The notes: generated from the sequence alone by a model not told the origin. DNA of 64,000 bases from Patescibacteria group bacterium (GCA_043803385.1 JAZDKA010000034.1:10561-74560), one strand, 5' to 3'. Counted from the first letter of the stretch, positions 2,065 to 59,612 are shown. Made by a program: numbers and translations.

Positions 2065-3150
2065 TTATAGTATTATATAATTTTGCCCTCCAATATCTTT
2101 CACCATCCCTTTCATTTCCATCATAACCAGCGCGGAGCTTAAAGTTGCTGTTTTAAGTTTAGTTATTTTAAGCAGCTTGTCAATGTGAATAGGTTCATTT
2201 CCCAAATTTTTTAGGATAATTTCTTCTTCCGGAGAATCGGGGATTATTTCTCTGGCTTTTTCTATTCCAGCCCTTTTTTCCAGTCGAAGCTCTTCTAAAA
2301 TATCCTGAACGCCGGAAACCAATTTTGCGCCTTTTTTGATTAGCTTATTTGTCCCTTGCGAACTTTCGGAAAATATTGGTCCGGGAACGGAAAATACTTC
2401 CCGATTAAATTCCAAAGCCAAATTGGCGGTTATCAAACTTCCGCTGTCAAGCTGGGCTTCAATTACTAAAGTTCCAAGAGTAAGACCGGCCATGAGTCTA
2501 TTGCGAGCAGGAAAATTTCCCGGAATCGATTGGACTCCCAACGGGAAATCACTTAAAAGCGCGCCACTGTCAATTATTTTTTTGGAAAGCTGAAAGTTGG
2601 CGCGCGGTCCGATATTATTGTCTTCCAAGCTGCTTCCAAGTACAGCAATTGTTTTTCCCTTGGCTTCAAGCGCTCCAATATGCGCTTCAGCGTCAACTCC
2701 CAACGCCATTCCACTCACCACGGTTATTCCGGCCATCACTAAATCTCTGGCAAAACTATAGGCGGCTTGTTTCCCATAGCTGGTCATTTTTCTCGATCCG
2801 ACAATAGCTATGGCGGGATTTTTAAATAACTCCGTGATTTCCAAACTACTCTTTATATATAATATGTAGGGGGCGCTGGGTATTTCACGAAGAAGCGGAG
2901 GATAATCAGGATTTTGAAAATCAATTGCTTTAATATTTTCTTTGGCGAGCTTTTCCATTTCTTCTTCTGGATTTATTTTCTCTCTTTCGGATATTATTTT
3001 ATTCAATAGGCTTTCTCCAATCCCGCTTTGGATAAGTTCCTTGCAATTTGCTTTCCAAATGCTTTCAGAAGAATCGAAAAAATCTAAAAGCATTTTCATC
3101 TTCTGGGGGCCAAGTCCCTGGATTTTGTTGAGAGCATTAAGATATTTCAT
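2065..3150 (-). CDS. dprA: DNA processing protein DprA (Smf)
   Basis: Motifs GSRKMTSYGKQ and VVSGMALGVDAEAHIGAL (Rossmann-like DprA core) plus a C-terminal winged-helix region. Lies next to topA, which is a conserved gene pair. Confidence 0.85.
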   Translation of the reverse strand: MKYLNALNKIQGLGPQKMKMLLDFFDSSESIWKANCKELIQSGIGESLLNKIISEREKINPEEEMEKLAKENIKAIDFQNPDYPPLLREIPSAPYILYIKSSLEITELFKNPAIAIVGSRKMTSYGKQAAYSFARDLVMAGITVVSGMALGVDAEAHIGALEAKGKTIAVLGSSLEDNNIGPRANFQLSKKIIDSGALLSDFPLGVQSIPGNFPARNRLMAGLTLGTLVIEAQLDSGSLITANLALEFNREVFSVPGPIFSESSQGTNKLIKKGAKLVSGVQDILEELRLEKRAGIEKAREIIPDSPEEEIILKNLGNEPIHIDKLLKITKLKTATLSSALVMMEMKGMVKDIGGQNYIIL

Positions 3151-3184
3151 AATACTCCTTTGAATATACCAGGATTTTCATTGC

Positions 3185-3213
3185 TTGACAAAAGACAAAT
3201 AGTTTGCTATATT
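3185..3213 (+). promoter_or_regulatory. Sigma70-like promoter (ttgaca, 17 bp spacer, tatatt)
   Basis: Exact -35 ttgaca at 3185-3190 and -10 tatatt at 3208-3213. A leader of about 200 nt follows before the ORF at 3429. Confidence 0.45.
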
Positions 3214-3377
3214 AGACCGTTATAGTAGTTATTTAAAAAGATACAAAAAGTGCCTACTTTTGGCATTTTGAAGACTAAATGGTTTTCGGTATTTCGCCCG
3301 CAGATCTGAAGCGGCGATCCTCCTTACGTCCGTTAGGTGAAATATATCTGATCTTGAAATTTCAAGAGAAGATATTA

Positions 3378-3401
3378 CTGCAGGCGAAATTCCGGAAATC
3401 A
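3378..3401. repeat. Direct repeat copy 1 (ctgcaggcgaaattccggaaatca)
   Basis: Matches 3809-3832 at 21 of 24 positions. The two copies bracket ORF 3429-3785. Confidence 0.6.
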
Positions 3402-3428
3402 ATTTTTTTAAAATAAAGGGAGGATAAG

Positions 3429-3785
3429 ATGGAAAAATATTACAGATGGGCTGAAGATGCGTTAGGGGTTTTGCTGGGGATAGTGTTATTTTTATTGGCT
3501 ACTGTAGTCTATTCTGATATAAAAGAGGGGACTTCCTTCACATTTATGGGGCTAGCTGTGATTTTTATGTTCTTTGTTGTCAGCGTAGCCTCTATTCTTC
3601 TCGGCAAGTATGTTTATCAATCCAGGGAAAACGAAAAAGCAATCGTGCTAGGCAAGGAAATTTATGAGGAAATAGAAAAAAATACTCCGAAGTCAGGCAT
3701 CGCTCAAAAAGTAATCGTAGAAATGAGAGTGGTGGCAGATACGAAGTATGGGCAGATAAAGAAATTGAGGTGGGGAAAAATATAG
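3429..3785 (+). CDS. Hypothetical membrane protein (two N-terminal TM helices)
   Basis: Clean ORF with an RBS (aagggaggataag before ATG) and hydrophobic helices at the N-terminus. Confidence 0.55.
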   Translation: MEKYYRWAEDALGVLLGIVLFLLATVVYSDIKEGTSFTFMGLAVIFMFFVVSVASILLGKYVYQSRENEKAIVLGKEIYEEIEKNTPKSGIAQKVIVEMRVVADTKYGQIKKLRWGKI

Positions 3786-3808
3786 AATTCATACAGAGGA
3801 AAATACTA

Positions 3809-3832
3809 CTGCAGACTAAATTCCGGAAATCA
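3809..3832. repeat. Direct repeat copy 2 (ctgcagactaaattccggaaatca)
   Basis: Partner of the 3378-3401 copy. Confidence 0.6.
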
Positions 3833-4040
3833 TTTTATATTATTGGAGGTGGCATAAGTTTAATACCTAACACAACAAGGGAGGTGGGAGAAGAAAGAGA
3901 ATAAGGATGAAGTATGGGAGAAGATTTGCGTCGTCGCATTGCAATAATTGCAATAAATGCGATGGCAAAAACCTTCTCCTGTTTTTTATTTTCCAAATCG
4001 CTTCTTTTTCTAAAGATTCTTATTTTTCATTTAATTTCAG

Positions 4041-4076
4041 TATAACATTTTTCTTCGATCGCGGAAATGTGTTATA
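4041..4076. repeat. 36-bp imperfect palindrome, copy 1 (tataacatttttcttcgatcgcggaaatgtgttata)
   Basis: Inverted termini tataaca / tgttata around a cgatcg core. A second copy at 4742-4777 differs by 2 mismatches. Confidence 0.7.
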
Positions 4077-4100
4077 CTATTTGCATGAGTTAATTTTTCA

Positions 4101-4406
4101 TTGTATCCGTCCTATCTTATGAATAAAAATAAAAATTTAAAAGTAAAAAGCGGAAGATTTATTGCGGAAAAAATAATTAAAAATTCTATAAGTGCTTCAG
4201 CCTGGGCATTTTCTATGCTTATTGATTTGGGAGAATTGACCATTGAATCTTTTCTTAATCCTTCATACTATGCCGACTTTCCAAATACTTCGGCAATGCT
4301 ATTTACGGAATCAAAATCTTCCAAAAAGAAGAAAGTAAAATTTAGCGAACCGGCGATAAGGCAAAGTATCTGGAGATTGAAAAAACTGGGATTTGTGGAA
4401 AAGTAA
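4101..4406 (+). CDS. N-terminal fragment of a winged-helix (PaaX-like) regulator, upstream of an apparent frameshift
   Basis: The ORF ends ...IRQSIWRLKKLGFVEK. The wing continues in a different frame as GRFTLSLVGK (see ORF 4393-4719). Confidence 0.45.
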   Translation: MYPSYLMNKNKNLKVKSGRFIAEKIIKNSISASAWAFSMLIDLGELTIESFLNPSYYADFPNTSAMLFTESKSSKKKKVKFSEPAIRQSIWRLKKLGFVEK

Positions 4407-4719
4407 AGAAGGGAGATTCACACTTTCATTGGTTGGAAAGATTTTAGCTAAATATATAATCAGCCGAAAAAAAGTTCTAAACAAAAAATGGGATGGGAAA
4501 TATAGGGTGGTTATTTTTGATATTCCTGAAGAAAAGAGGAAAATCAGGGACTGGCTAAGAGGGGAGCTGGACTTACTGGATTATAAAAAACTTCAAAAAA
4601 GTGTTTTTATAAGTAAATTTTCGCTGACTAGTGATTTGATAAAAGAAATAAAAAACAAAAAAATAGGTAGCTATGTAAATTATCTACTAGTTGATAAAGT
4701 ATACAAAAATATTATTTAG
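4393..4719 (+). CDS. C-terminal part of the same regulator, carrying a Cas2-like domain
   Basis: YRVVIFDIPEEKRKIRDWLRGELDLLDYKKLQKSVF matches the Cas2 N-terminal pattern hhhhFDhP..eRk..r..L...G....Q.SV[FY]. It overlaps the upstream ORF in another frame, and the track gives it a TTG start. Confidence 0.45.
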   Translation: MWKSKEGRFTLSLVGKILAKYIISRKKVLNKKWDGKYRVVIFDIPEEKRKIRDWLRGELDLLDYKKLQKSVFISKFSLTSDLIKEIKNKKIGSYVNYLLVDKVYKNII

Positions 4720-4741
4720 ATTATGCAACGTAATTTATTGC

Positions 4742-4777
4742 TATAACACTTTTCTTCGATCGCGTAAATGTGTTATA
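4742..4777. repeat. 36-bp imperfect palindrome, copy 2; overlaps the pth stop codon
   Basis: tataacacttttcttcgatcgcgtaaatgtgttata. The pth stop (tta on the plus strand, 4773-4775) lies in the right arm. Confidence 0.7.
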
Positions 4778-5300
4778 AAATTATTTTTATTTTTTTCGCC
4801 AGATTTTTTATTGTTTCCAATTCTTCTTCTGAAAAATCTTGAAGTACAAAAACATCGCCGGGAATCACTCGGTTTTTTCTTTGCTCTATTCCTTCAATTC
4901 CGATTCGAGTTCTTTTGAAATTTCGAGTTCCGAGTTTATCGATGATGTCTTGCACGCCATTATGTCCGGCTGGTCCCGAATCGTTTGAGATTTTAAATTC
5001 GCCTAAGTTTATATCCAGGTCATCATGGATGACAGTAATATCTTCCGGAACCAGTTTGCAGAAATTGATTATTTTCCGGACTGCTTCACCGGATTCATTC
5101 ATAAAGGTTTGTGGTTTGGTTAAAATAATTTTATCGTTCTCAAAATTTCCTTCGGAGATATCCGCGTTGAATTTTTTGGAAAATTCAAAATCAGGAAAGT
5201 TCCATTCTCTCTTAAGCTCATCAAGAATTATAAAACCGGCATTGTGGCGATTGTTTTTATATTTTTCTCCGGGATTTCCGAGTCCGATTATTATCTTCAT
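4773..5300 (-). CDS. pth: Peptidyl-tRNA hydrolase
   Basis: MKIIIGLGNPGEKYKNNRHNAGF and the HDDLDI motif. The start was moved to the internal Met because the ORF's upstream extension is encoded by gaacat tandem repeats. Confidence 0.85.
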   Translation of the reverse strand: MKIIIGLGNPGEKYKNNRHNAGFIILDELKREWNFPDFEFSKKFNADISEGNFENDKIILTKPQTFMNESGEAVRKIINFCKLVPEDITVIHDDLDINLGEFKISNDSGPAGHNGVQDIIDKLGTRNFKRTRIGIEGIEQRKNRVIPGDVFVLQDFSEEELETIKNLAKKIKIIL

Positions 5301-5367
5301 GGAACATTGAACATAGAACATGGAACAAAATAGCCGTTTCATGTTTTATGCTATGTGTTATATGGTT

Positions 5368-6939
5368 TTATTTTTTTATTAAATCAAAATATTCCTGTTT
5401 TTCTTCCGCGTTCTTGAACTCTTCAATGTTTCCTTCCTCGAAAGATTCAATGTTCCCAAGATCACTTCCTAAAATTAGCACCAAATCACTCTCGCTTTCT
5501 ATTATATCACGATAATTATTATTCAGCTTTGCGTCCAATTTTTTGACAATTTCATCAAGCGTAAATAATTTTTGTCCCCGAGTATTATCATACACCGTAG
5601 TTTTCTCTGAAATTTTGTTGTTTACCGAAGATTCTATTGAAACGTTTTTAATCCCCATTTTATCATTGAGCAATTCTTTTATTTTTTGCGGCAAATTGGG
5701 ATATCCGCTTTGGTTGGCAATTATTATGCTAGCATTTTCTTTTTCTATTTCCGCTTTTCTCCGTCGAATGCTATCTAAGTCAAAAATATTTTCAAAAATA
5801 TCCTGAATCTCGCTGTAATTTCCAACTCTTGGGACAAGGACAAAAGCCTGAACGCCTCCTGCGAATACGTGGGAAACCTTGAGGACGCTGTCCTTCTCCC
5901 AGGCATCAATTACCGCATTAGCAATGTTTTGAGTATCGAGCTCTTTGCTTAGGTTGAGAAAGCTTTCAATGTCGTCTATTTTTATGTCAGTTTTGATATT
6001 GTCTCCAAGATCTGTGAGTAAACTGTTAAGCCTCAAGGGATTTATAAAAATTTTGAGCGAAAAAATTTTATTTTTAGCCGATTGCATGACTTGCTGCTGC
6101 CTCTTAGCTCTTCCGAAATCTCCTTCCGGATCATCGTGCCTTTCGCGGACGTACTTAAGTGCCGTATCGCCATTCATAAGATAGGTTCCTTTTTTAATTT
6201 CGAAAGTCTCATAGCTGTAATTCGGTCCCGGATATCTCGGATCGTAGATATCTCTTTCTACGGAAACATTTATTCCTCCGATGTCGTCAATTATTTTTTT
6301 GAATCCGTCAAAGTCCAAAATGACGAAATAATTAACAGGAGCTCCAATTATATCTTCAATGGTTTTTCTGATTGGCTGGACGCTTTCATTGCGGTTTATT
6401 CCGTATTGGTAGATGGAATTTATTTTTGTATAATATGAAGTTTCGGGAATATTAGCGTAGAAATCTCGAGGAAGCGAAAAAAGGGAATTTTTTTTGTTTT
6501 TTGTATCAATACTCATTACCATTATCGTATCAGTAAGATTTTGTCCGGGTTTTCCTTTACCGGCGGTGCCGAGAAGCAAAATATTTATTCTTCCGTTTTC
6601 TTCTCCTCTTAATGGCTTTCTTTTGTCAGGAATAAAAGATGAGATTAGTGAACTCACATTTCCAATCACAGAGCTTTTTTCATTTTCAATTCCTATTTTT
6701 TTTCCAACGAACCCGATTTTGAAAGCGAAATATCCTCCCCAAGCAATTGCCAGAATTAACACGGCAAAAATAATTATCTTTGCTATTTTTTTCAAAAAAG
6801 CCCGAGCAGGCTTTTTTTCTTTAGCCTCTTTCACAAGCTCTCTTTCCTTCAGATAAATATCCCGGTTATTGTTGATAAATGATTCATAAGAAGAATAAGG
6901 ATTCTCCGATTCCTTTTTTCTGATTTTTGTTATATCCAT
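5368..6939 (-). CDS. LytR-CpsA-Psr (LCP) family cell-envelope phosphotransferase
   Basis: N-terminal TM helix, then ILLLGTAGKGKPGQNLTDTIMVMSIDTKNKKNSLFSLPRDFYANIPE and the LCP core, plus a C-terminal LytR_C-like region. Confidence 0.8.
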   Translation of the reverse strand: MDITKIRKKESENPYSSYESFINNNRDIYLKERELVKEAKEKKPARAFLKKIAKIIIFAVLILAIAWGGYFAFKIGFVGKKIGIENEKSSVIGNVSSLISSFIPDKRKPLRGEENGRINILLLGTAGKGKPGQNLTDTIMVMSIDTKNKKNSLFSLPRDFYANIPETSYYTKINSIYQYGINRNESVQPIRKTIEDIIGAPVNYFVILDFDGFKKIIDDIGGINVSVERDIYDPRYPGPNYSYETFEIKKGTYLMNGDTALKYVRERHDDPEGDFGRAKRQQQVMQSAKNKIFSLKIFINPLRLNSLLTDLGDNIKTDIKIDDIESFLNLSKELDTQNIANAVIDAWEKDSVLKVSHVFAGGVQAFVLVPRVGNYSEIQDIFENIFDLDSIRRRKAEIEKENASIIIANQSGYPNLPQKIKELLNDKMGIKNVSIESSVNNKISEKTTVYDNTRGQKLFTLDEIVKKLDAKLNNNYRDIIESESDLVLILGSDLGNIESFEEGNIEEFKNAEEKQEYFDLIKK

Positions 6940-7665: not shown

Positions 7666-7805
7666 AAATTTCTAATTCACCTAATTTCTAATTTCTAATC
7701 AATTTATAATGACAAAATATCTAATGTCCAAAATTTTATTCAGTTGGACAATTGGGGTTTGATTAGGTCAATTAGGTCAATTAGAAATTAATAAAATTTA
7801 TTTTT

Positions 7806-9170
7806 ATGGTTAAGAAAGTAAAAATTAAGAAAAAATATAAGAAGAAAGGAAAAGTAATTAAAACAAGTGTAATTGATACTATTCTCTTGCAGCCTCCTCG
7901 CGGTATGCGGGATATTTTGCCAGAAGACCAGCCTTATTGGGAACACATAAGAAAAAATTTATCCAGGCTTTCATATGAATATGGATTTCAGAGAATAGAT
8001 GTTCCTCTGGTTGAATATGCCAATTTGTTCAATCGTTCAATCGGAGAAGGAACTGACATTATCGATAAAGAAATGTATGCTTTTACTACTCGAGGGGGAG
8101 ATAGAGTAGCACTTCGTCCGGAAATGACAGCTGGGATATGCAGGGCTTACATCCAGCACGGGATGAACGTTCTTTCTAAACCGATCAAGCTATTTTCAAT
8201 TGGCCAGATTTATCGATATGACAGGCCCCAGGAGGGAAGATACCGCGAGCATTGGCAAGCCAATTTTGACATTTTCGGAGAAGATAATCCCATTATGGAC
8301 GCCCACCTTATCCAGCTTGCTCATCGTTTAGTGACGTCGCTAGGGATAAAAAATATCGAATTTCAAATAAACAGCATCGGATGCGCCCAATGCCGAAAAG
8401 ACTATCGAAATCTTTTAGTGAGCTACTTTGAATCAAGAAAGCAAAAGCTTTGCCAGAATTGCAAAAGAAGATTGGAAGTTAATCCACTTCGCATTCTTGA
8501 CTGTAAAGAAGACAAGTGTGTTCAAGTGGGATCAAATGCTCCGCAAACAGTCGACCATTTGTGCGCTGATTGCCATTTGCATTTCAAAAATCTGCTTGAA
8601 TATCTTGATGAACTGAATTTGCCGTATGTTATTAATAATAGATTGGTAAGAGGACTGGATTATTATACCCGAACAGTTTTTGAAATTTGGTCCGGAGAAA
8701 AAGGAGGAAAGAATTTTTCTTTGGGCGGAGGAGGAAGATATGACAGGCTTATTAAAATGCTCGGGGGGGAAGATACTCCCGCAATCGGTTTCGGGCTGGG
8801 GCTCGATAGAATTGCTATTGAAATGAAGAGAACTAATGTGAAAATACATAAAACTCCGGCTCCGAGAGTGTTTTTGGCTCAATTAGGAGAATTGGCTAAG
8901 AAAAAAAGTTTGAATATGTTTTCTGAACTGGAAAAAAATGGAATTCCAGTGGCAGAGAGTTTTGGAAGAGGAAGCCTCAAATCCCAGCTTAGAGTGGCAG
9001 ACAAATTTCAGGTTGAAATAACTTTAATTATCGGGCAGAAGGAAGCTTTGGATGACACAGTGATTGTTAAAAATATGAAAACCGGTTCACAGGAAACAGT
9101 GGCAAATGAGAAAATAATCAATGCAGTAAAAAAAATACTTAAGAACGATATAATAGTTTCGCACGCATAA
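7806..9170 (+). CDS. hisS: Histidyl-tRNA synthetase
   Basis: Class II motifs: LLQPPRGMRDILPED, LRPEMTAGICRAY and QIYRYDRPQEGRYREHWQANFDIFG. A C-terminal anticodon-binding domain is present, and there is a Cys-rich insertion. Confidence 0.9.
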   Translation: MVKKVKIKKKYKKKGKVIKTSVIDTILLQPPRGMRDILPEDQPYWEHIRKNLSRLSYEYGFQRIDVPLVEYANLFNRSIGEGTDIIDKEMYAFTTRGGDRVALRPEMTAGICRAYIQHGMNVLSKPIKLFSIGQIYRYDRPQEGRYREHWQANFDIFGEDNPIMDAHLIQLAHRLVTSLGIKNIEFQINSIGCAQCRKDYRNLLVSYFESRKQKLCQNCKRRLEVNPLRILDCKEDKCVQVGSNAPQTVDHLCADCHLHFKNLLEYLDELNLPYVINNRLVRGLDYYTRTVFEIWSGEKGGKNFSLGGGGRYDRLIKMLGGEDTPAIGFGLGLDRIAIEMKRTNVKIHKTPAPRVFLAQLGELAKKKSLNMFSELEKNGIPVAESFGRGSLKSQLRVADKFQVEITLIIGQKEALDDTVIVKNMKTGSQETVANEKIINAVKKILKNDIIVSHA

Positions 9171-51688: not shown

Positions 51689-51780
51689 GAAGAATGATAT
51701 TATATCTGAAGATTTAGTAGTATAGTAAAAGCAAAGTAGTTTGAATAATAAAAAAATAAAATATAGAACGGAGGTGAACT

Positions 51781-52218
51781 ATGGCTAAAAAGAAAAAAAC
51801 AAACAAAAAGAAAAGAGGCTTTACTCTGATCGAACTTTTGATAGTTATTGCCATTATTGGAATTCTAGCAAGCATCGTCGTAGTTAATTTAAATAATGCC
51901 AGAGTTAAGGCCAGAAAAGCTTCTGCTGTGTCATCTCTTTCAAGTGTCATGGGCGAACTTTCCATATGCGATAACGATGAAGGGGAAGCTACTGCTTCAG
52001 CTCCAAGTGGAGGAATAACAAATATTTGCTGCACTGATGATACTTGCGATACGCCTGCAGATGGACATAGTATAATCTGGCCCAATATATCAACTACCGG
52101 ATTTACTTATGATACTCCAGCAGGATCTGTTTCTGGCGGAGATTATGTCTTTACGGCTACAAACAGTACGACTAGCGTGACTATAACCTGCAGTTTCTCG
52201 AGCAAGAGTTGCCAATAG
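51781..52218 (+). CDS. Type IV pilin (prepilin, class III signal peptide)
   Basis: [25 protein letters not shown], with a Cys-containing C-terminal domain. Confidence 0.8.
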   Translation: MAKKKKTNKKKRGFTLIELLIVIAIIGILASIVVVNLNNARVKARKASAVSSLSSVMGELSICDNDEGEATASAPSGGITNICCTDDTCDTPADGHSIIWPNISTTGFTYDTPAGSVSGGDYVFTATNSTTSVTITCSFSSKSCQ

Positions 52219-52285
52219 AAATTAGCTATGTGGTATAATATAAATTGATTGAATATAAATATAAAAAATAGAAAGGCGGTGAAAT

Positions 52286-52672
52286 ATGAAAAAGAAAAAA
52301 AACAAAAAGAAAAAAGGATTTACTCTTATCGAGTTGTTAATAGTTATCGCCATTATCGGAATTTTGGCATCGATTGTGTTGGTGAGTTTGGGTAATGCTA
52401 GAACAAAGTCTTTGGCGGCTGGGTTTAAAGCGTCTTCTACGAGCTTAAGGCCAGCTCTTATTGTGGCTTGCGATGGGGTGGTTGGCAGTATAGCATCAAG
52501 CACTATAAATCCTCCAGCGGAGCTTTCTCTTCCTGGTACTATAACATGTAATGATGGTACATGGACTGCGTTTGCCGTAACTCCTACTGCCGGTCAAAAA
52601 TATGCCGGACTGGCTTGTTCAGCAACTATCTCCGTAGAAAGTGCAGTGTTTAGTGGTGCAGACTGTTTATAA
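52286..52672 (+). CDS. Type IV pilin, paralog 2
   Basis: [35 protein letters not shown]. Preceded by tgtggtataat at 52239-52249. Confidence 0.8.
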
Positions 52673-52785
52673 ATGGCAAACGATTTTTTGTATCCATTAA
52701 TATTCTGGTAATTTTTAACTTGATGAGGTTTCCGCAATACCCATTTTTTTGGGATTACGGAGCAAAGTAGAAAGCGAGGTGAAAT

Positions 52786-53196
52786 ATGAAAAAGAAAAAA
52801 AACAAAAAGAAAAAAGGATTTACTCTTATCGAACTTTTGATTGTTATTGCGATCATCGGAATTTTAGCAAGTATTGTGCTGGTAAGTTTGAATAGTGCGA
52901 GAACCAAAGCCAGAGCGGCTTCTTGGAAAGCAACCGTTGCTAGTGTTCAAAAATCGGCGATTGCTTGCTGTGCTAGTGGAAATACTATTAATGGATATTC
53001 GGATGGGGGAGTAATGTGTACTGGATCTACTTCGGTGTGGCCGGCGGCAGCGAATGTTGGTACGGGTATCACTATATCAAACTGTTCGAATGCTAATCCC
53101 GCATTTACAATCAGTATTAGCACTCCTCCGACTCTTGCGACTGGATGCACGAGTGCTAGTTGTACTATTACTAATTGCGCATTTGTGGGGTGTTAG
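52786..53196 (+). CDS. Type IV pilin, paralog 3
   Basis: N-terminal 31 aa identical to paralog 2. Divergent Cys-rich C-terminal domain. Confidence 0.8.
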
Positions 53197-53204
53197 CAAT
53201 CTCC

Positions 53205-53224
53205 ATCGAGGTTCGACCTCGATA
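53205..53224. repeat. REP-like palindrome (atcgaggttcgacctcgata)
   Basis: Same element as the four copies around the RAYT gene at 56.6-57.4 kb. Confidence 0.7.
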
Positions 53225-53250
53225 TCTATCGATAGCTATAAAATTTTCAA

Positions 53251-53281
53251 AAGAGCGGGTTTTTCCCGCTCTTTTGTTTTT
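53251..53281 (+). terminator. Rho-independent terminator after the pilin genes
   Basis: aagagcgggtttttcccgctctt followed by ttgttttt. Confidence 0.6.
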
Positions 53282-53336
53282 GGCGGTTTTGTGGTAATAT
53301 TTAAATGCAAATTATCTTTTAAAACAAACACAAAAT

Positions 53337-54140
53337 ATGATTATAACAATCTTTTTTATTCTCGGCCTTATTATCGGAAGTTTTCTGAACGTTGTGGTTT
53401 ATCGTCTGAATGTGGCAGAAACGCTTTTGGGCCGTTCGCATTGCCCGCATTGCCAAAAGCAAATCCGCTGGTACGACAATATTCCGCTTCTAAGCTTTAT
53501 TTTGTTAAGAATGAAATGCCGGGATTGCCAGAAGAAAATTTCCTGGCAGTATCCACTGGTTGAATTTTTTACCGGTGTAATTTTTGCCCTCGTTGGAAAT
53601 TATTTTTTCTTTGTTATGGATCCGCAAAGCTGGATAACCGCCTTTTATCATTTAGTCCTATTCGCGCTATTATTGGTTATATTCGTATATGACTGGAAGT
53701 TTATGGAAATCCCGATGATTATTTTTTGGATAACTCTGGGAATTTCTATTTTATATGCCCTTTTTTCCGATTGGGTTAATTTCGTTCCCGATTTTGGAAT
53801 TTGGAATCTTTCAATATTTTCCGGCTTAATTGGCGCCGCGATCGCGTTTCTGTTCTTTTTTATCCTCGTTGCCGTTTCCAAGGAAAAATGGATGGGAATG
53901 GGAGACGCATACTTGGCGTTTCTCGCCGGTTTCGTAGTTGGCTATCCCAAGGTTCTCTTTACCTTGGTTTTAGCCTTCTTTATCGGTTCAGTTTGCAGTA
54001 TAATATTGTTAGCGCTCAAGAAGAAAACGATGAAAAGCCAAATTCCATTCGCGCCGTTTTTGGTAAGCGCGGTTATTCTGGTAATTTTATTGCCTGAAAT
54101 ATTTCCGGCGTTAAATTATTATTATCTATTATTTTATTAA
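53337..54140 (+). CDS. pilD: Prepilin peptidase PilD (A24 family)
   Basis: N-terminal CPHC...CRDC zinc motif and the polytopic A24 core. Confidence 0.85.
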   Translation: MIITIFFILGLIIGSFLNVVVYRLNVAETLLGRSHCPHCQKQIRWYDNIPLLSFILLRMKCRDCQKKISWQYPLVEFFTGVIFALVGNYFFFVMDPQSWITAFYHLVLFALLLVIFVYDWKFMEIPMIIFWITLGISILYALFSDWVNFVPDFGIWNLSIFSGLIGAAIAFLFFFILVAVSKEKWMGMGDAYLAFLAGFVVGYPKVLFTLVLAFFIGSVCSIILLALKKKTMKSQIPFAPFLVSAVILVILLPEIFPALNYYYLLFY

Positions 54141-54203
54141 CGAGTTCACGGGTTAACGAGTTTATTGAATAAATACTCAACCCGTTAACTCTTTAGCTCG
54201 TTA

Positions 54204-54695
54204 ATGATTAATGAATTAATGAAAAAGAAAAAGGCTTTTTCTATAATTGAGGTGCTGATCGTTATTGCCATAATCGGAATAATGACTGCCGCCACGATTG
54301 TTTCTCTGCAAAGCGGAAAAACGGACAAAGAATTGGAGACTGCCGCGCGGGAAGTTTCTGCCGCAATCCGCGAAGCGCAAAACAACGCGTTGACGGGGAA
54401 AAATGCCAGTTCTAGTTGTCAGTATTATGACTTTACTTATACCGCAAGCAGCACAAATTATTCAGTAGGAACCGTTAGCGGGTCAGGGTGTCCACTGGCG
54501 AGCTATACTCTAAAAAACGGAGTAACTTTTGTAAACGGAGGAAGTTTTAATTTTTCTATTCCATTTGGGGGAGTGACTGGAATAAGTGGAATAAAAATAA
54601 CGAAAAATAATGTTTGTTATTGCGTATCTATAAATTCTTCCGGTTCGGTTGAAGAAAGAGGAAAACTTTCTACTTGTAGCGCTTCTTGCTCATGA
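54204..54695 (+). CDS. Minor pilin / pseudopilin
   Basis: [23 protein letters not shown] prepilin N-terminus. Confidence 0.65.
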   Translation: MINELMKKKKAFSIIEVLIVIAIIGIMTAATIVSLQSGKTDKELETAAREVSAAIREAQNNALTGKNASSSCQYYDFTYTASSTNYSVGTVSGSGCPLASYTLKNGVTFVNGGSFNFSIPFGGVTGISGIKITKNNVCYCVSINSSGSVEERGKLSTCSASCS

Positions 54696-54736: not shown

Positions 54737-55318
54737 ATGTTTTTAAAAAATATTAAAAATTTTATTGGAAATTGGAAATTGGAAATTGGAAATTCTTCGA
54801 AGAAGGCGGGTTTTTCTCTTGTGGAAGTAATGTTCTCTGTTTGCGTGCTGTCCATCGGAATCGTGGCGGTGCTGTCTTTGATGACGGGAAATATTAAAAA
54901 TTCCATCGAAAGCCGCGACGCGATAATCGCTTCCGAACTGGCGCAAGAGGGGATAGAATTGGTCAGGAATGTCAGGGATAATAATTTCGTAAATGTCAGA
55001 ACCGCTTTCGAGCAAAATTTTCCCAATAACGATAGGGATAATTGCAAGATAGATAAAGGTTCTGATAATATTACAGATTGCAATAGTGGACACAGTAAAG
55101 TTCTTAATTATAGTAGCGGTTTTTACATTCATGGAAGCGGGACAGCAACAAAATTTCAAAGAAAAATAGCCATCGATTATGATACGTGGCCAAACCCAGT
55201 TCAAGCAACAATTACCAGCACGGTTTGGTGGAATGGAAGTTCAAGTTCTCCTGCTAGTTGTAATATGGCGACAAAGTGCATTTATGTTGAAGATATTTTG
55301 ACGGATTGGGCAAACTGA
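54737..55318 (+). CDS. Minor pilin with a leader encoded by a heptamer repeat
   Basis: KKAG/FSLVEVMFSVCVLSIGIV. The N-terminal [10 protein letters not shown] segment is encoded by (ggaaatt)x4. Confidence 0.6.
   Translation: MFLKNIKNFIGNWKLEIGNSSKKAGFSLVEVMFSVCVLSIGIVAVLSLMTGNIKNSIESRDAIIASELAQEGIELVRNVRDNNFVNVRTAFEQNFPNNDRDNCKIDKGSDNITDCNSGHSKVLNYSSGFYIHGSGTATKFQRKIAIDYDTWPNPVQATITSTVWWNGSSSSPASCNMATKCIYVEDILTDWAN
54769..54796. repeat. (ggaaatt)x4 heptamer tandem repeat
   Basis: Read directly from the sequence. Confidence 0.7.

Positions 55319-56640: not shown

Positions 56641-59612
<2,972 letters not shown>

Follow-up and report, generated by a model that had tools for sequence, protein, structure and literature searches.

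The DNA analysed here is a stretch of 64,000 nucleotides from a Patescibacteria group bacterium (the window), in which a small gene is bracketed by two palindromes of 36 bp (Table 1). Its immediate neighbours are an unannotated 118-aa ORF upstream (3429–3785) and a convergent pth downstream. The positions and the 34/36 identity that a sequence-only reading of this DNA had given for the two palindromes were reproduced; 2 differences in 36 positions separate the copies, which stand in direct orientation. Each is an imperfect hairpin with a CGATCG core, as had been described, with 14 of 18 positions self-complementary around that centre, and the symmetry of the upstream copy reaches 40 bp (4039–4078, AG...CT). 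The palindromes indeed bracket the gene, at distances of 42 nt from the end of the upstream 36-mer to the ATG at 4119 and of 22 nt from the stop codon at 4717–4719 to the start of the downstream 36-mer. The reported overlap with the end of pth is also seen, the pth stop codon (4773–4775, minus strand) lying inside the right arm of the downstream copy, after which the window continues with a T-rich stretch. Folded as RNA of the plus strand, the two copies give weak to moderate hairpins of −14.3 kcal/mol (upstream) and −7.7 kcal/mol (downstream), and both are more degenerate than the palindromes of relatives. Further copies were sought within the 64-kb window, where there are two and no more: no third 36-mer occurs at up to 3 mismatches (shuffled sequences gave 0 matches in 100), neither an arm-gap-arm pattern nor a general scan for 36-bp palindromes returns a related element, and a half-site search comes out near chance, with 7 matches against 3.5 expected.

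Table 1. Features at the mini-PaaX locus, in coordinates of the window.
Feature	Position	Strand	Description
Terminator-like hairpin (GGGAGAAG...CTTCTCC) and T-run	3916–3993	+	Closes the upstream transcription unit; left border of the cassette indel
Variable segment	3994–4772	none	Present in the window, L001 and L003; missing in five close relatives
Upstream 36-bp palindrome, centre CGATCG	4041–4076	none	Proposed operator overlapping the gene's promoter; its counterpart occupies this position in L001, L003 and some 55 further loci
Extended −10-like TGTTATACT	4070–4078	+	Right arm of the upstream palindrome plus 2 nt
mini-PaaX, 5′ part	4119–4403	+	Residues 1–95: N-terminal helices and recognition helix of the winged helix
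Extra base T	4404	+	Creates a TAA stop and a frameshift
mini-PaaX, 3′ part	4405–4719	+	Wing, linker helix, Cas2-like PaaX_M domain and stop codon
Downstream 36-bp palindrome	4742–4777	none	Proposed auxiliary operator; downstream partner family-wide
Convergent pth	4773–5300	−	PF01195 (E=9e-55), TIGR00447; 100% identical to P0121 (175 aa)

The enclosed DNA had been taken for a cassette of two ORFs. The tblastn frames and a DNA alignment show a single gene split by one extra base: residues 1–95 match at 4119–4403 and residues 96–199 at 4405–4716 in a different frame, and around position 4404 the window reads GTGGAAAAGTAAAGAAGG where the syntenic genome L001 reads GTAGAAAAA-AAAGAAGG. The frameshift falls in the wing of the winged helix, so that neither half is a complete domain. 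The extra T is either a pseudogenising mutation or an assembly error, and unless it is the latter the copy in the window is probably inactive or decaying. Programmed frameshifting at 4404 was considered and rejected, since a slip from AAG to AGU is not cognate and the break lies inside the wing. The joined translation retrieves more than 180 homologs, the best 120 of which are single proteins of 168–228 aa, mostly 190–206 aa, that cover 85–100% of it. Most belong to Candidatus Moranbacteria or to other Patescibacteria; their annotations vary between "Cas2", "PaaX family" and "hypothetical", and the family extends outside the CPR (Patescibacteria) to Micavibrio, Syntrophaceae and Thermodesulfobacteriota. 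No second member of the family is encoded in the window.

Several lines of evidence place the protein close to PaaX. The PaaX_M model PF20803 matches the second ORF at E=1.6e-17 (63.8 bits against a cut-off of 24) and, on the frame-corrected protein, at E=4.8e-17. An AlphaFold2 model of P0004, the syntenic ortholog of 69% identity, has a pLDDT of 87.7; in it a linker helix follows the winged helix and leads to a domain of beta-alpha-beta-beta-alpha-beta topology. Compared with the PDB, the model comes closest to E. coli PaaX (8A39; 198 columns, E=9e-6) and next to 3KFW, 3L09 and Cas2 chains. By sequence the Pfam winged-helix models return no match. Nor does PaaX_C, the phenylacetyl-CoA-sensing domain, the protein ending about 10 residues past the Cas2-like fold, and the TIGR02277 PaaX equivalog is far missed at 14 bits against a cut-off of 264.55; the protein therefore represents a PaaX-like subfamily rather than a PaaX ortholog. 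We call it mini-PaaX, a protein of about 200 aa that combines a winged helix with a Cas2-like PaaX_M domain and has no C-terminal ligand domain. Models of Cas2 itself remain below cut-off (PF09827 at 19.5 against 23.8, TIGR01573 at 23 against 24.5), the PADLOC defence models give only sub-threshold Cas2 matches, and no CRISPR repeat-spacer structure is found among the 20 largest direct-repeat families listed for the window.

The arrangement of site, gene and site is a property of the family. We took a census of 80 genome loci retrieved by a family profile, together with L001/L002 and L003, and used 397 other genes from the same loci as controls. Alike palindromic 36-mers occur on both flanks of 57 of the 80 family genes and of 4 of the 397 control genes (1%), and several of the unpaired loci (for example L010–L012 and L007) have versions that are somewhat shifted or degenerate. 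Of 114 sites, 104 have a CGRYCG centre, as CGATCG (60), CGGCCG (19), CGGTCG (14) or CGACCG (11). The arms are alike between the two copies of one genome and different between genomes; paralogs within a genome can differ in their arms too, as do L036 and L074 on the Daviesbacteria chromosome CP066688.1. At most loci the upstream site ends 0–50 nt before the start codon, and the start of the downstream site ranges from 14 nt ahead of the stop codon's last base to about 50 nt past it, the site often containing the codon. A downstream site accompanies the gene both at 26 loci with a co-directional next gene and at 17 loci with a convergent one. Those next genes that are co-directional are diverse, including aminoacyl-tRNA synthetases, Fpg, MPG (twice), RmuC and a U32 peptidase, and no common function was found among them; DNA repair is at most faintly suggested as a theme. 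In the neighbouring DNA of 83 loci, about 800 kb in all, additional sites are almost absent, the exceptions being L032, with one perfect solo site in the dnaB–recR interval, and Micavibrio L064, with an array of five sites; a scan of metagenomes with a DNA pattern returned a single match, the downstream copy of the L001 genome itself (L084). The layout recurs around the family in dozens of ultra-small CPR bacteria and appears to be undescribed: we found no literature that describes it or that links PaaX-like proteins to Cas2-like domains, to the CPR or to flanking palindromes, which, full-text coverage being incomplete, is absence of evidence only.

Whether such elements act as DNA or as RNA bears on the proposal, made from the sequence alone, that they are bidirectional terminators. 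More generally, they might be hairpin terminators or insulators, in RNA or as extruded DNA, that stand at both ends of the gene and work independently of any protein. Both 36-mers can indeed fold, and the downstream copy of the window lies between convergent genes and ahead of the T-rich stretch. Moreover, symmetric double changes between the copies of one genome number 58, where random placement gives 22, and 31 of them are fully compensatory and so preserve pairing; this excess could reflect a hairpin or cruciform role, or symmetric position-specific variability. Most other observations run against termination. Of 53 copies on each side, just 10 downstream and 7 upstream ones have a T-run of at least 4 within 12 nt, a terminator scan makes no call at either site in the window, and the hairpins there are AU-rich and mismatched, the downstream one in particular being weak. 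Mispairs on the sense strand are as often G.T (81) as A.C (79), so there is no RNA wobble signature. Symmetry is high at positions 2–11 and 15–18 and low at 12–14, which are poorly paired, as would be expected of two protein-contact patches per half-site and not of a continuous stem. An invariant CGRYCG and alike copies are unexpected of terminators, and the non-palindromic centres (GT, AC) would fit a half-site CGR that is read independently on each strand. Finally, relatives without the cassette use an ordinary upstream hairpin beside pth, the T-run of which reaches right up to the pth stop in L085, L089 and L092. With so few T-runs, weak hairpins in the window and no terminator call, the proposal of bidirectional terminators finds no support, and we give protein-independent hairpins very little credence. 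An RNA element as such was rejected as a candidate, there being no relevant Rfam match and no excess of G.U on the sense strand: a search of 2800–5600 with Rfam 15 at E<=1 returned nothing but a chance miRNA match on the upstream terminator hairpin, and the whole window at gathering threshold gave tRNAs only.

Comparison of relatives bears on the second proposal of the sequence-only reading, that the palindromes are terminal inverted repeats of a small mobile cassette. In L001/L002 (69% identity) and L003 (62%) the gene order is topA, dprA, a variable small gene, mini-PaaX, convergent pth, lytR, lepB and hisS, with a 36-bp palindrome at each end of the mini-PaaX gene (in L001 at 3926–3961 and 4638–4673). 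Further relatives were sampled via pth and are therefore unbiased as to the cassette. Five of these (L085, L087, L089, L091 and L092, at 73–80% pth identity) retain lytR-pth ... dprA-topA and have neither the mini-PaaX gene nor either palindrome, and in none of the cassette-less genomes is a single site left as a remnant. The search for an empty site in related genomes thus succeeded, and synteny does break among them; a failure to find such a break had been named as an argument against mobility. In a neighbour-joining tree of DprA, LytR and Pth the genomes with and without the cassette are interspersed; L001, which has the cassette, pairs with the cassette-less L087 at 90% bootstrap, and the outgroup, L003, has the cassette. 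Identity to L001 and L003 is 69% and 62% for mini-PaaX and 73% and 58% for the flanking proteins. Since the divergence of mini-PaaX tracks that of its flanks and the absences are interspersed, vertical inheritance with repeated loss is the simplest account, and repeated loss best explains the absences. The joint loss of the gene and both sites indicates in addition that the sites are tied functionally to the gene. We found no relative of mini-PaaX in the IMG/VR viral collection, and a search of plasmids gave only 4 distant, partial PaaX-family matches, to full-length PaaX genes. The cassette is dispensable, and it is not demonstrably mobile.

If the palindromes were the terminal repeats of a small transposable cassette, the enclosed gene would encode its mobility protein. 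The bracketing by alike palindromes, the possibility of several paralogs with different arms in one genome, the spread of the family to Micavibrio, Syntrophaceae and Thermodesulfobacteriota, and the presence or absence of the cassette among relatives all speak for such a cassette. Yet the copies in the window are direct (34/36) and not inverted, and across the family the orientation of the pairs is mixed (27 direct, 12 inverted, 13 tied), as would suit a symmetric binding site but neither transposon ends nor sites of recombination. The window flanks show no obvious target-site duplication, no other copy exists in the 64 kb and almost none in the neighbouring DNA of the census, and the protein has no HUH, DDE or recombinase domain. 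The position of the gene is conserved from L003 to the window, with a divergence that looks vertical. The window also holds a genuine Y1-transposase and palindrome system, with 5 dispersed copies, that differs from the one described here; its Y1_Tnp locus is at 56642–57423. A transposable cassette is on these grounds extremely improbable, and the terminal-inverted-repeat proposal is not supported, given direct copies, no further copies in the window, a syntenic gene and no relative in the viral collection.

A different kind of boundary deserves more consideration. The palindromes may delimit cassettes as recombination sites, in the manner of attC or pdif, at which genes are joined or swapped, with mini-PaaX (perhaps by way of its Cas2-like domain) or a host enzyme acting on CGRYCG. 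A suggestive locus is that of Micavibrio (L064), where an array of five sites delimits four unrelated gene units in a region resembling a defence island. The sites hug the ORF, often with the stop codon in the left arm and a start 0–20 nt past the right arm; in L019, L020 and L024 the flanks are directly repeated over 100–140 nt; close relatives either have or lack the cassette, and its slot shows other variation too; and an invariant centre with variable arms is like a crossover core with binding arms. Against this, no recombinase or integrase stands beside the gene among the ORFs examined in the window or in L064. The mixed orientation would mean excision in some genomes and inversion in others, and the cassette-less genomes keep no single site of the kind that site-specific excision leaves behind. 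The gene stays in its syntenic place, its divergence follows that of flanking housekeeping proteins, and viral relatives are lacking in IMG/VR, as are plasmid ones beyond the 4 distant partial matches. The Micavibrio array itself can be read otherwise, in that each site lies 11–51 nt upstream of one of five co-directional units, as a promoter-operator would, and the first two sites share a promoter-like sequence downstream; the array would be consistent with promoter-operators that control a small gene cluster. We regard cassette boundaries as quite unlikely.

The position of the upstream site relative to the promoter points to a regulatory function. A terminator-like hairpin and T-run, conserved in L001, L085, L087, L089, L091 and L092, ends the upstream transcription unit, so the mini-PaaX gene needs its own promoter here. 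The extended −10-like element that coincides with the right arm of the upstream palindrome has the form TGnTATAYT, as in a strong promoter at 3185–3213, and has a mirror-image TGTTATACT on the minus strand at 4039–4047. L001 carries a perfect TGTTATAAT at the corresponding −10 position. Over the family, a −10-like hexamer occurs on the gene-proximal side of 57% of upstream sites and in 15.5% of random windows. Many of the spacings between site and start codon would imply leaderless mRNAs.

On balance we think that the two 36-mers are probably paired operators for a dimeric mini-PaaX encoded between them, the assignment of the protein to the sites being by association. Autoregulation through operators was one of three functions suggested by the sequence-only reading, and it is the one that the comparative evidence supports. 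The argument combines a protein of PaaX type, pairs of sites that travel with its family, the symmetry of those sites as double-stranded DNA, and the overlap of the upstream one with a −10 element. One mini-PaaX dimer would occupy each 36-mer, the outer arms, which vary, being read by the two winged helices and the invariant CGRYCG centre lying under the conserved Cas2-like core of the dimer. Binding at the upstream site would occlude RNA polymerase and so bring about autorepression, as with E. coli PaaX at its own promoter Px. The 3′ site would be an auxiliary operator, which might loop with the 5′ site or raise local occupancy there; alternatively, it may act as a roadblock to transcription into or out of the gene. 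The centre-to-centre distances give no signal of helical phasing (Rayleigh p ~0.7–0.85), and looping is therefore unsupported.

Certain features of the system sit uneasily with operators. The 3′ copy has no obvious regulatory target, lying between convergent genes in the window and at 17 of 43 loci. A regulator whose sole visible targets are its own flanks is odd, the surplus of symmetric double changes between copies could point to hairpins or cruciforms instead, and the tight wrapping of the ORF together with direct-repeat flanks resembles cassette boundaries. Sites at other promoters, namely in the L064 array and the solo site of L032, speak for operators. One might also imagine an autonomous module that goes beyond autorepression, in which the Cas2-like core reads, and perhaps cuts or synapses at, CGRYCG, diverging winged helices read the arms, paralogs are orthogonal, and the sites serve as cassette junctions or topological insulators. 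The five-site array of Micavibrio, the direct-repeat flanks of 100–140 nt and the presence/absence polymorphism of the cassette offer hints of such a module, which we nonetheless hold to be unlikely.

To our knowledge, CPR genomes encode very few regulators, and their cis-regulatory code is almost unexplored. Linked to the widespread family of small regulators described here is a 36-bp site that is easily recognised by its CGRYCG centre and lineage-specific arms, and the layout, with the regulator gene bracketed by two such sites, is both unusual and consistent. If confirmed, operator function would provide ready-made orthogonal pairs of repressor and operator, allow the prediction of promoters and regulons in uncultured bacteria, offer a first clue to the way in which PaaX proteins might contact DNA through their Cas2-like domain, and correct misleading "Cas2" annotations. 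For the window itself the consequences are modest, as its copy is frameshifted and the cassette dispensable. Autorepression by PaaX is itself known; what would be new is a repressor/operator system of PaaX type with a self-bracketing layout and a conserved site grammar.

Comparison with known systems helps to delimit this one. The C-terminal domain of mini-PaaX shares with Cas2 and VapD the ferredoxin-like fold and a signature (VVIFDIPE ... LQxSVF), but in contrast to Cas2 it stays under the cut-offs of the Cas2 models and follows a winged helix in one fusion protein. A weak similarity of winged-helix profiles, marginal at E=1.6e-3, connects mini-PaaX with AspA, the PadR-like centromere-binding protein of the archaeal plasmid pNOB8. 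AspA reportedly binds a palindrome beside its own gene; it has no Cas2-like domain, however, and no partition genes are found at the mini-PaaX locus. Like integron attC sites and pdif sites, the imperfect palindromes abut ORF ends, and L064 is an array of units separated by sites. They are unlike both in that there is no integrase in the examined ORFs of the window and L064 and no Xer-type conservation of arms, in their mixed orientation, and in that cassette-less genomes keep no site. From attC they also differ as 36-bp sites with a conserved centre rather than conserved outer R and L boxes.

REP elements around a RAYT transposase are a known precedent for a gene flanked by palindromes. As in these Y1/IS200-like systems, short palindromes bracket the mini-PaaX gene and co-vary with it; here, by contrast, the protein is of PaaX type and lacks an HUH/Y1 domain, its palindromes are not scattered through the genome, and the pair has no fixed orientation. 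Auxiliary operators that act by looping are found with LacI (O1, O2 and O3), GalR (OE and OI) and lambda CI (OL and OR). The mini-PaaX loci are like these in that two alike putative operators, the first at the promoter and the second farther downstream, are separated by a few hundred bp, and unlike them in that the second lies past the end of the regulator's own gene and that helical phasing is lacking.

The closest parallel is PaaX itself. Mini-PaaX differs from it in size, with about 200 aa and no PaaX_C ligand domain against 305 or more aa, in having no paa genes nearby and in belonging to a family that is mostly of the CPR. Its sites differ in their invariant CGRYCG centre and hypervariable arms, and a second site follows the gene. 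The likeness extends from protein to DNA. As in PaaX of E. coli and Pseudomonas, the repressor of the phenylacetate catabolon, an N-terminal winged helix is followed by the Cas2-like PaaX_M domain, and the structural alignment with 8A39 takes in almost all of the protein. In E. coli, PaaX recognises the 39-bp site TGATTC-N27-GAATCA and keeps RNA polymerase off its own promoter, which is thereby repressed (PMC9493321). The putative operator described here is likewise a long split palindrome, of 36 bp where that of E. coli PaaX has 39 bp, and like the PaaX site it is predicted to lie at the promoter of the regulator's own gene.

Upstream of the cassette, which consists of the mini-PaaX gene (winged helix plus Cas2-like domain) and the two 36-bp palindromes that bracket it, lies a candidate structured non-coding RNA with its own promoter, a near-consensus TTGACA-17-TATATT with a TG. 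The RNA is conserved across seven related genomes, among them L092, a close relative lacking the cassette, in which the RNA is present and no ORF follows it. For the 3′ domain (3279-3403) 40 pairs are predicted, 11 of which show compensatory changes, and this domain contains an invariant, unpaired segment, GAUCCUCCUUA, that resembles the 3′ end of 16S rRNA. A search of Rfam 15 gave no match to the candidate RNA.

The final 38 nt of the candidate RNA (3368-3405) recur at 87% identity just beyond the small membrane-protein ORF that follows it. In the slot extending from the RNA to the hairpin and T-run terminator at 3916-3993 the small ORF differs in each relative, and the contents range from an ORF of 125-158 aa to a Band_7 gene to nothing at all. 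This slot looks like a gene-replacement hot spot. In another cassette-less relative, L087, a perfect but unrelated 26-bp palindrome with a CTAG centre (ATACTAATATACTAGTATATTAGTAT, L087 positions 3043-3068) occupies the slot that runs from the terminator to the pth stop codon.

Coordinates of features in the window and in the Micavibrio locus L064
Feature	Position	Strand	Description
Candidate structured non-coding RNA	3185-3405	+	~190 nt; between dprA and small ORF
118-aa membrane-protein ORF	3429-3785		second 38-nt repeat copy (3799-3836) directly after
L064 array	Micavibrio sp. DYDB01000001.1, 3233-6298		five copies of local 36-bp CGGCCG palindrome
L064 unit			Mrr-type nuclease with zinc ribbon
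L064 unit			74-aa ORF, DUF1801 and OmdA proteins
L064 unit			membrane protein
L064 unit			mini-PaaX
IS200-like Y1 transposase gene	56676-57377	minus	PF01797, E=5e-9

An exact copy of the arm half-site of the window's palindromes, ATGTGTTATA, falls at 5353-5362, in the short intergenic stretch that separates lytR from pth, immediately upstream of the latter, and the search for this half-site is statistically weak, with 7 matches versus 3.5 expected. At the related locus L032 a solo, perfect 36-bp palindrome with a CGATCG centre (8741-8776) lies between dnaB and recR. Its arms do not match those found around the mini-PaaX gene 2 kb away, so the site may be the target of another paralog. At L064 the palindromes mark off four units, and a NUDIX gene comes after the array. 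As a group, the adjoining genes have the look of a defence island; their products are a TaqI-like specificity domain, a ThsB-TIR-like protein and an 8xMP protein.

Elsewhere in the window, type IV pilin-like genes in tandem (51779-54695) share a conserved N-terminal segment of 18 residues; this set and the large repeated-domain genes at 19.7-28.6 kb seem unremarkable for CPR genomes. GGAAATT heptamers make up a perfect inverted repeat of 37 nt (54758-54794 and 57785-57821), which has related copies near 7683, 10038, 31780 and 62268. Both of its arms are coding: one falls within the N-terminal part of a pilin-like ORF, the other within a 23-residue insertion in the large ORF 57465-59612. The Y1 transposase gene is bracketed by a 21-bp palindrome, TATCGAGGTCGAACCTCGATA (locus 56642-57423), with two more copies in frame within the transposase ORF and one 3.4 kb from the locus, at 53204-53224. 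The transposase and its palindromes constitute a REP/RAYT-like arrangement.
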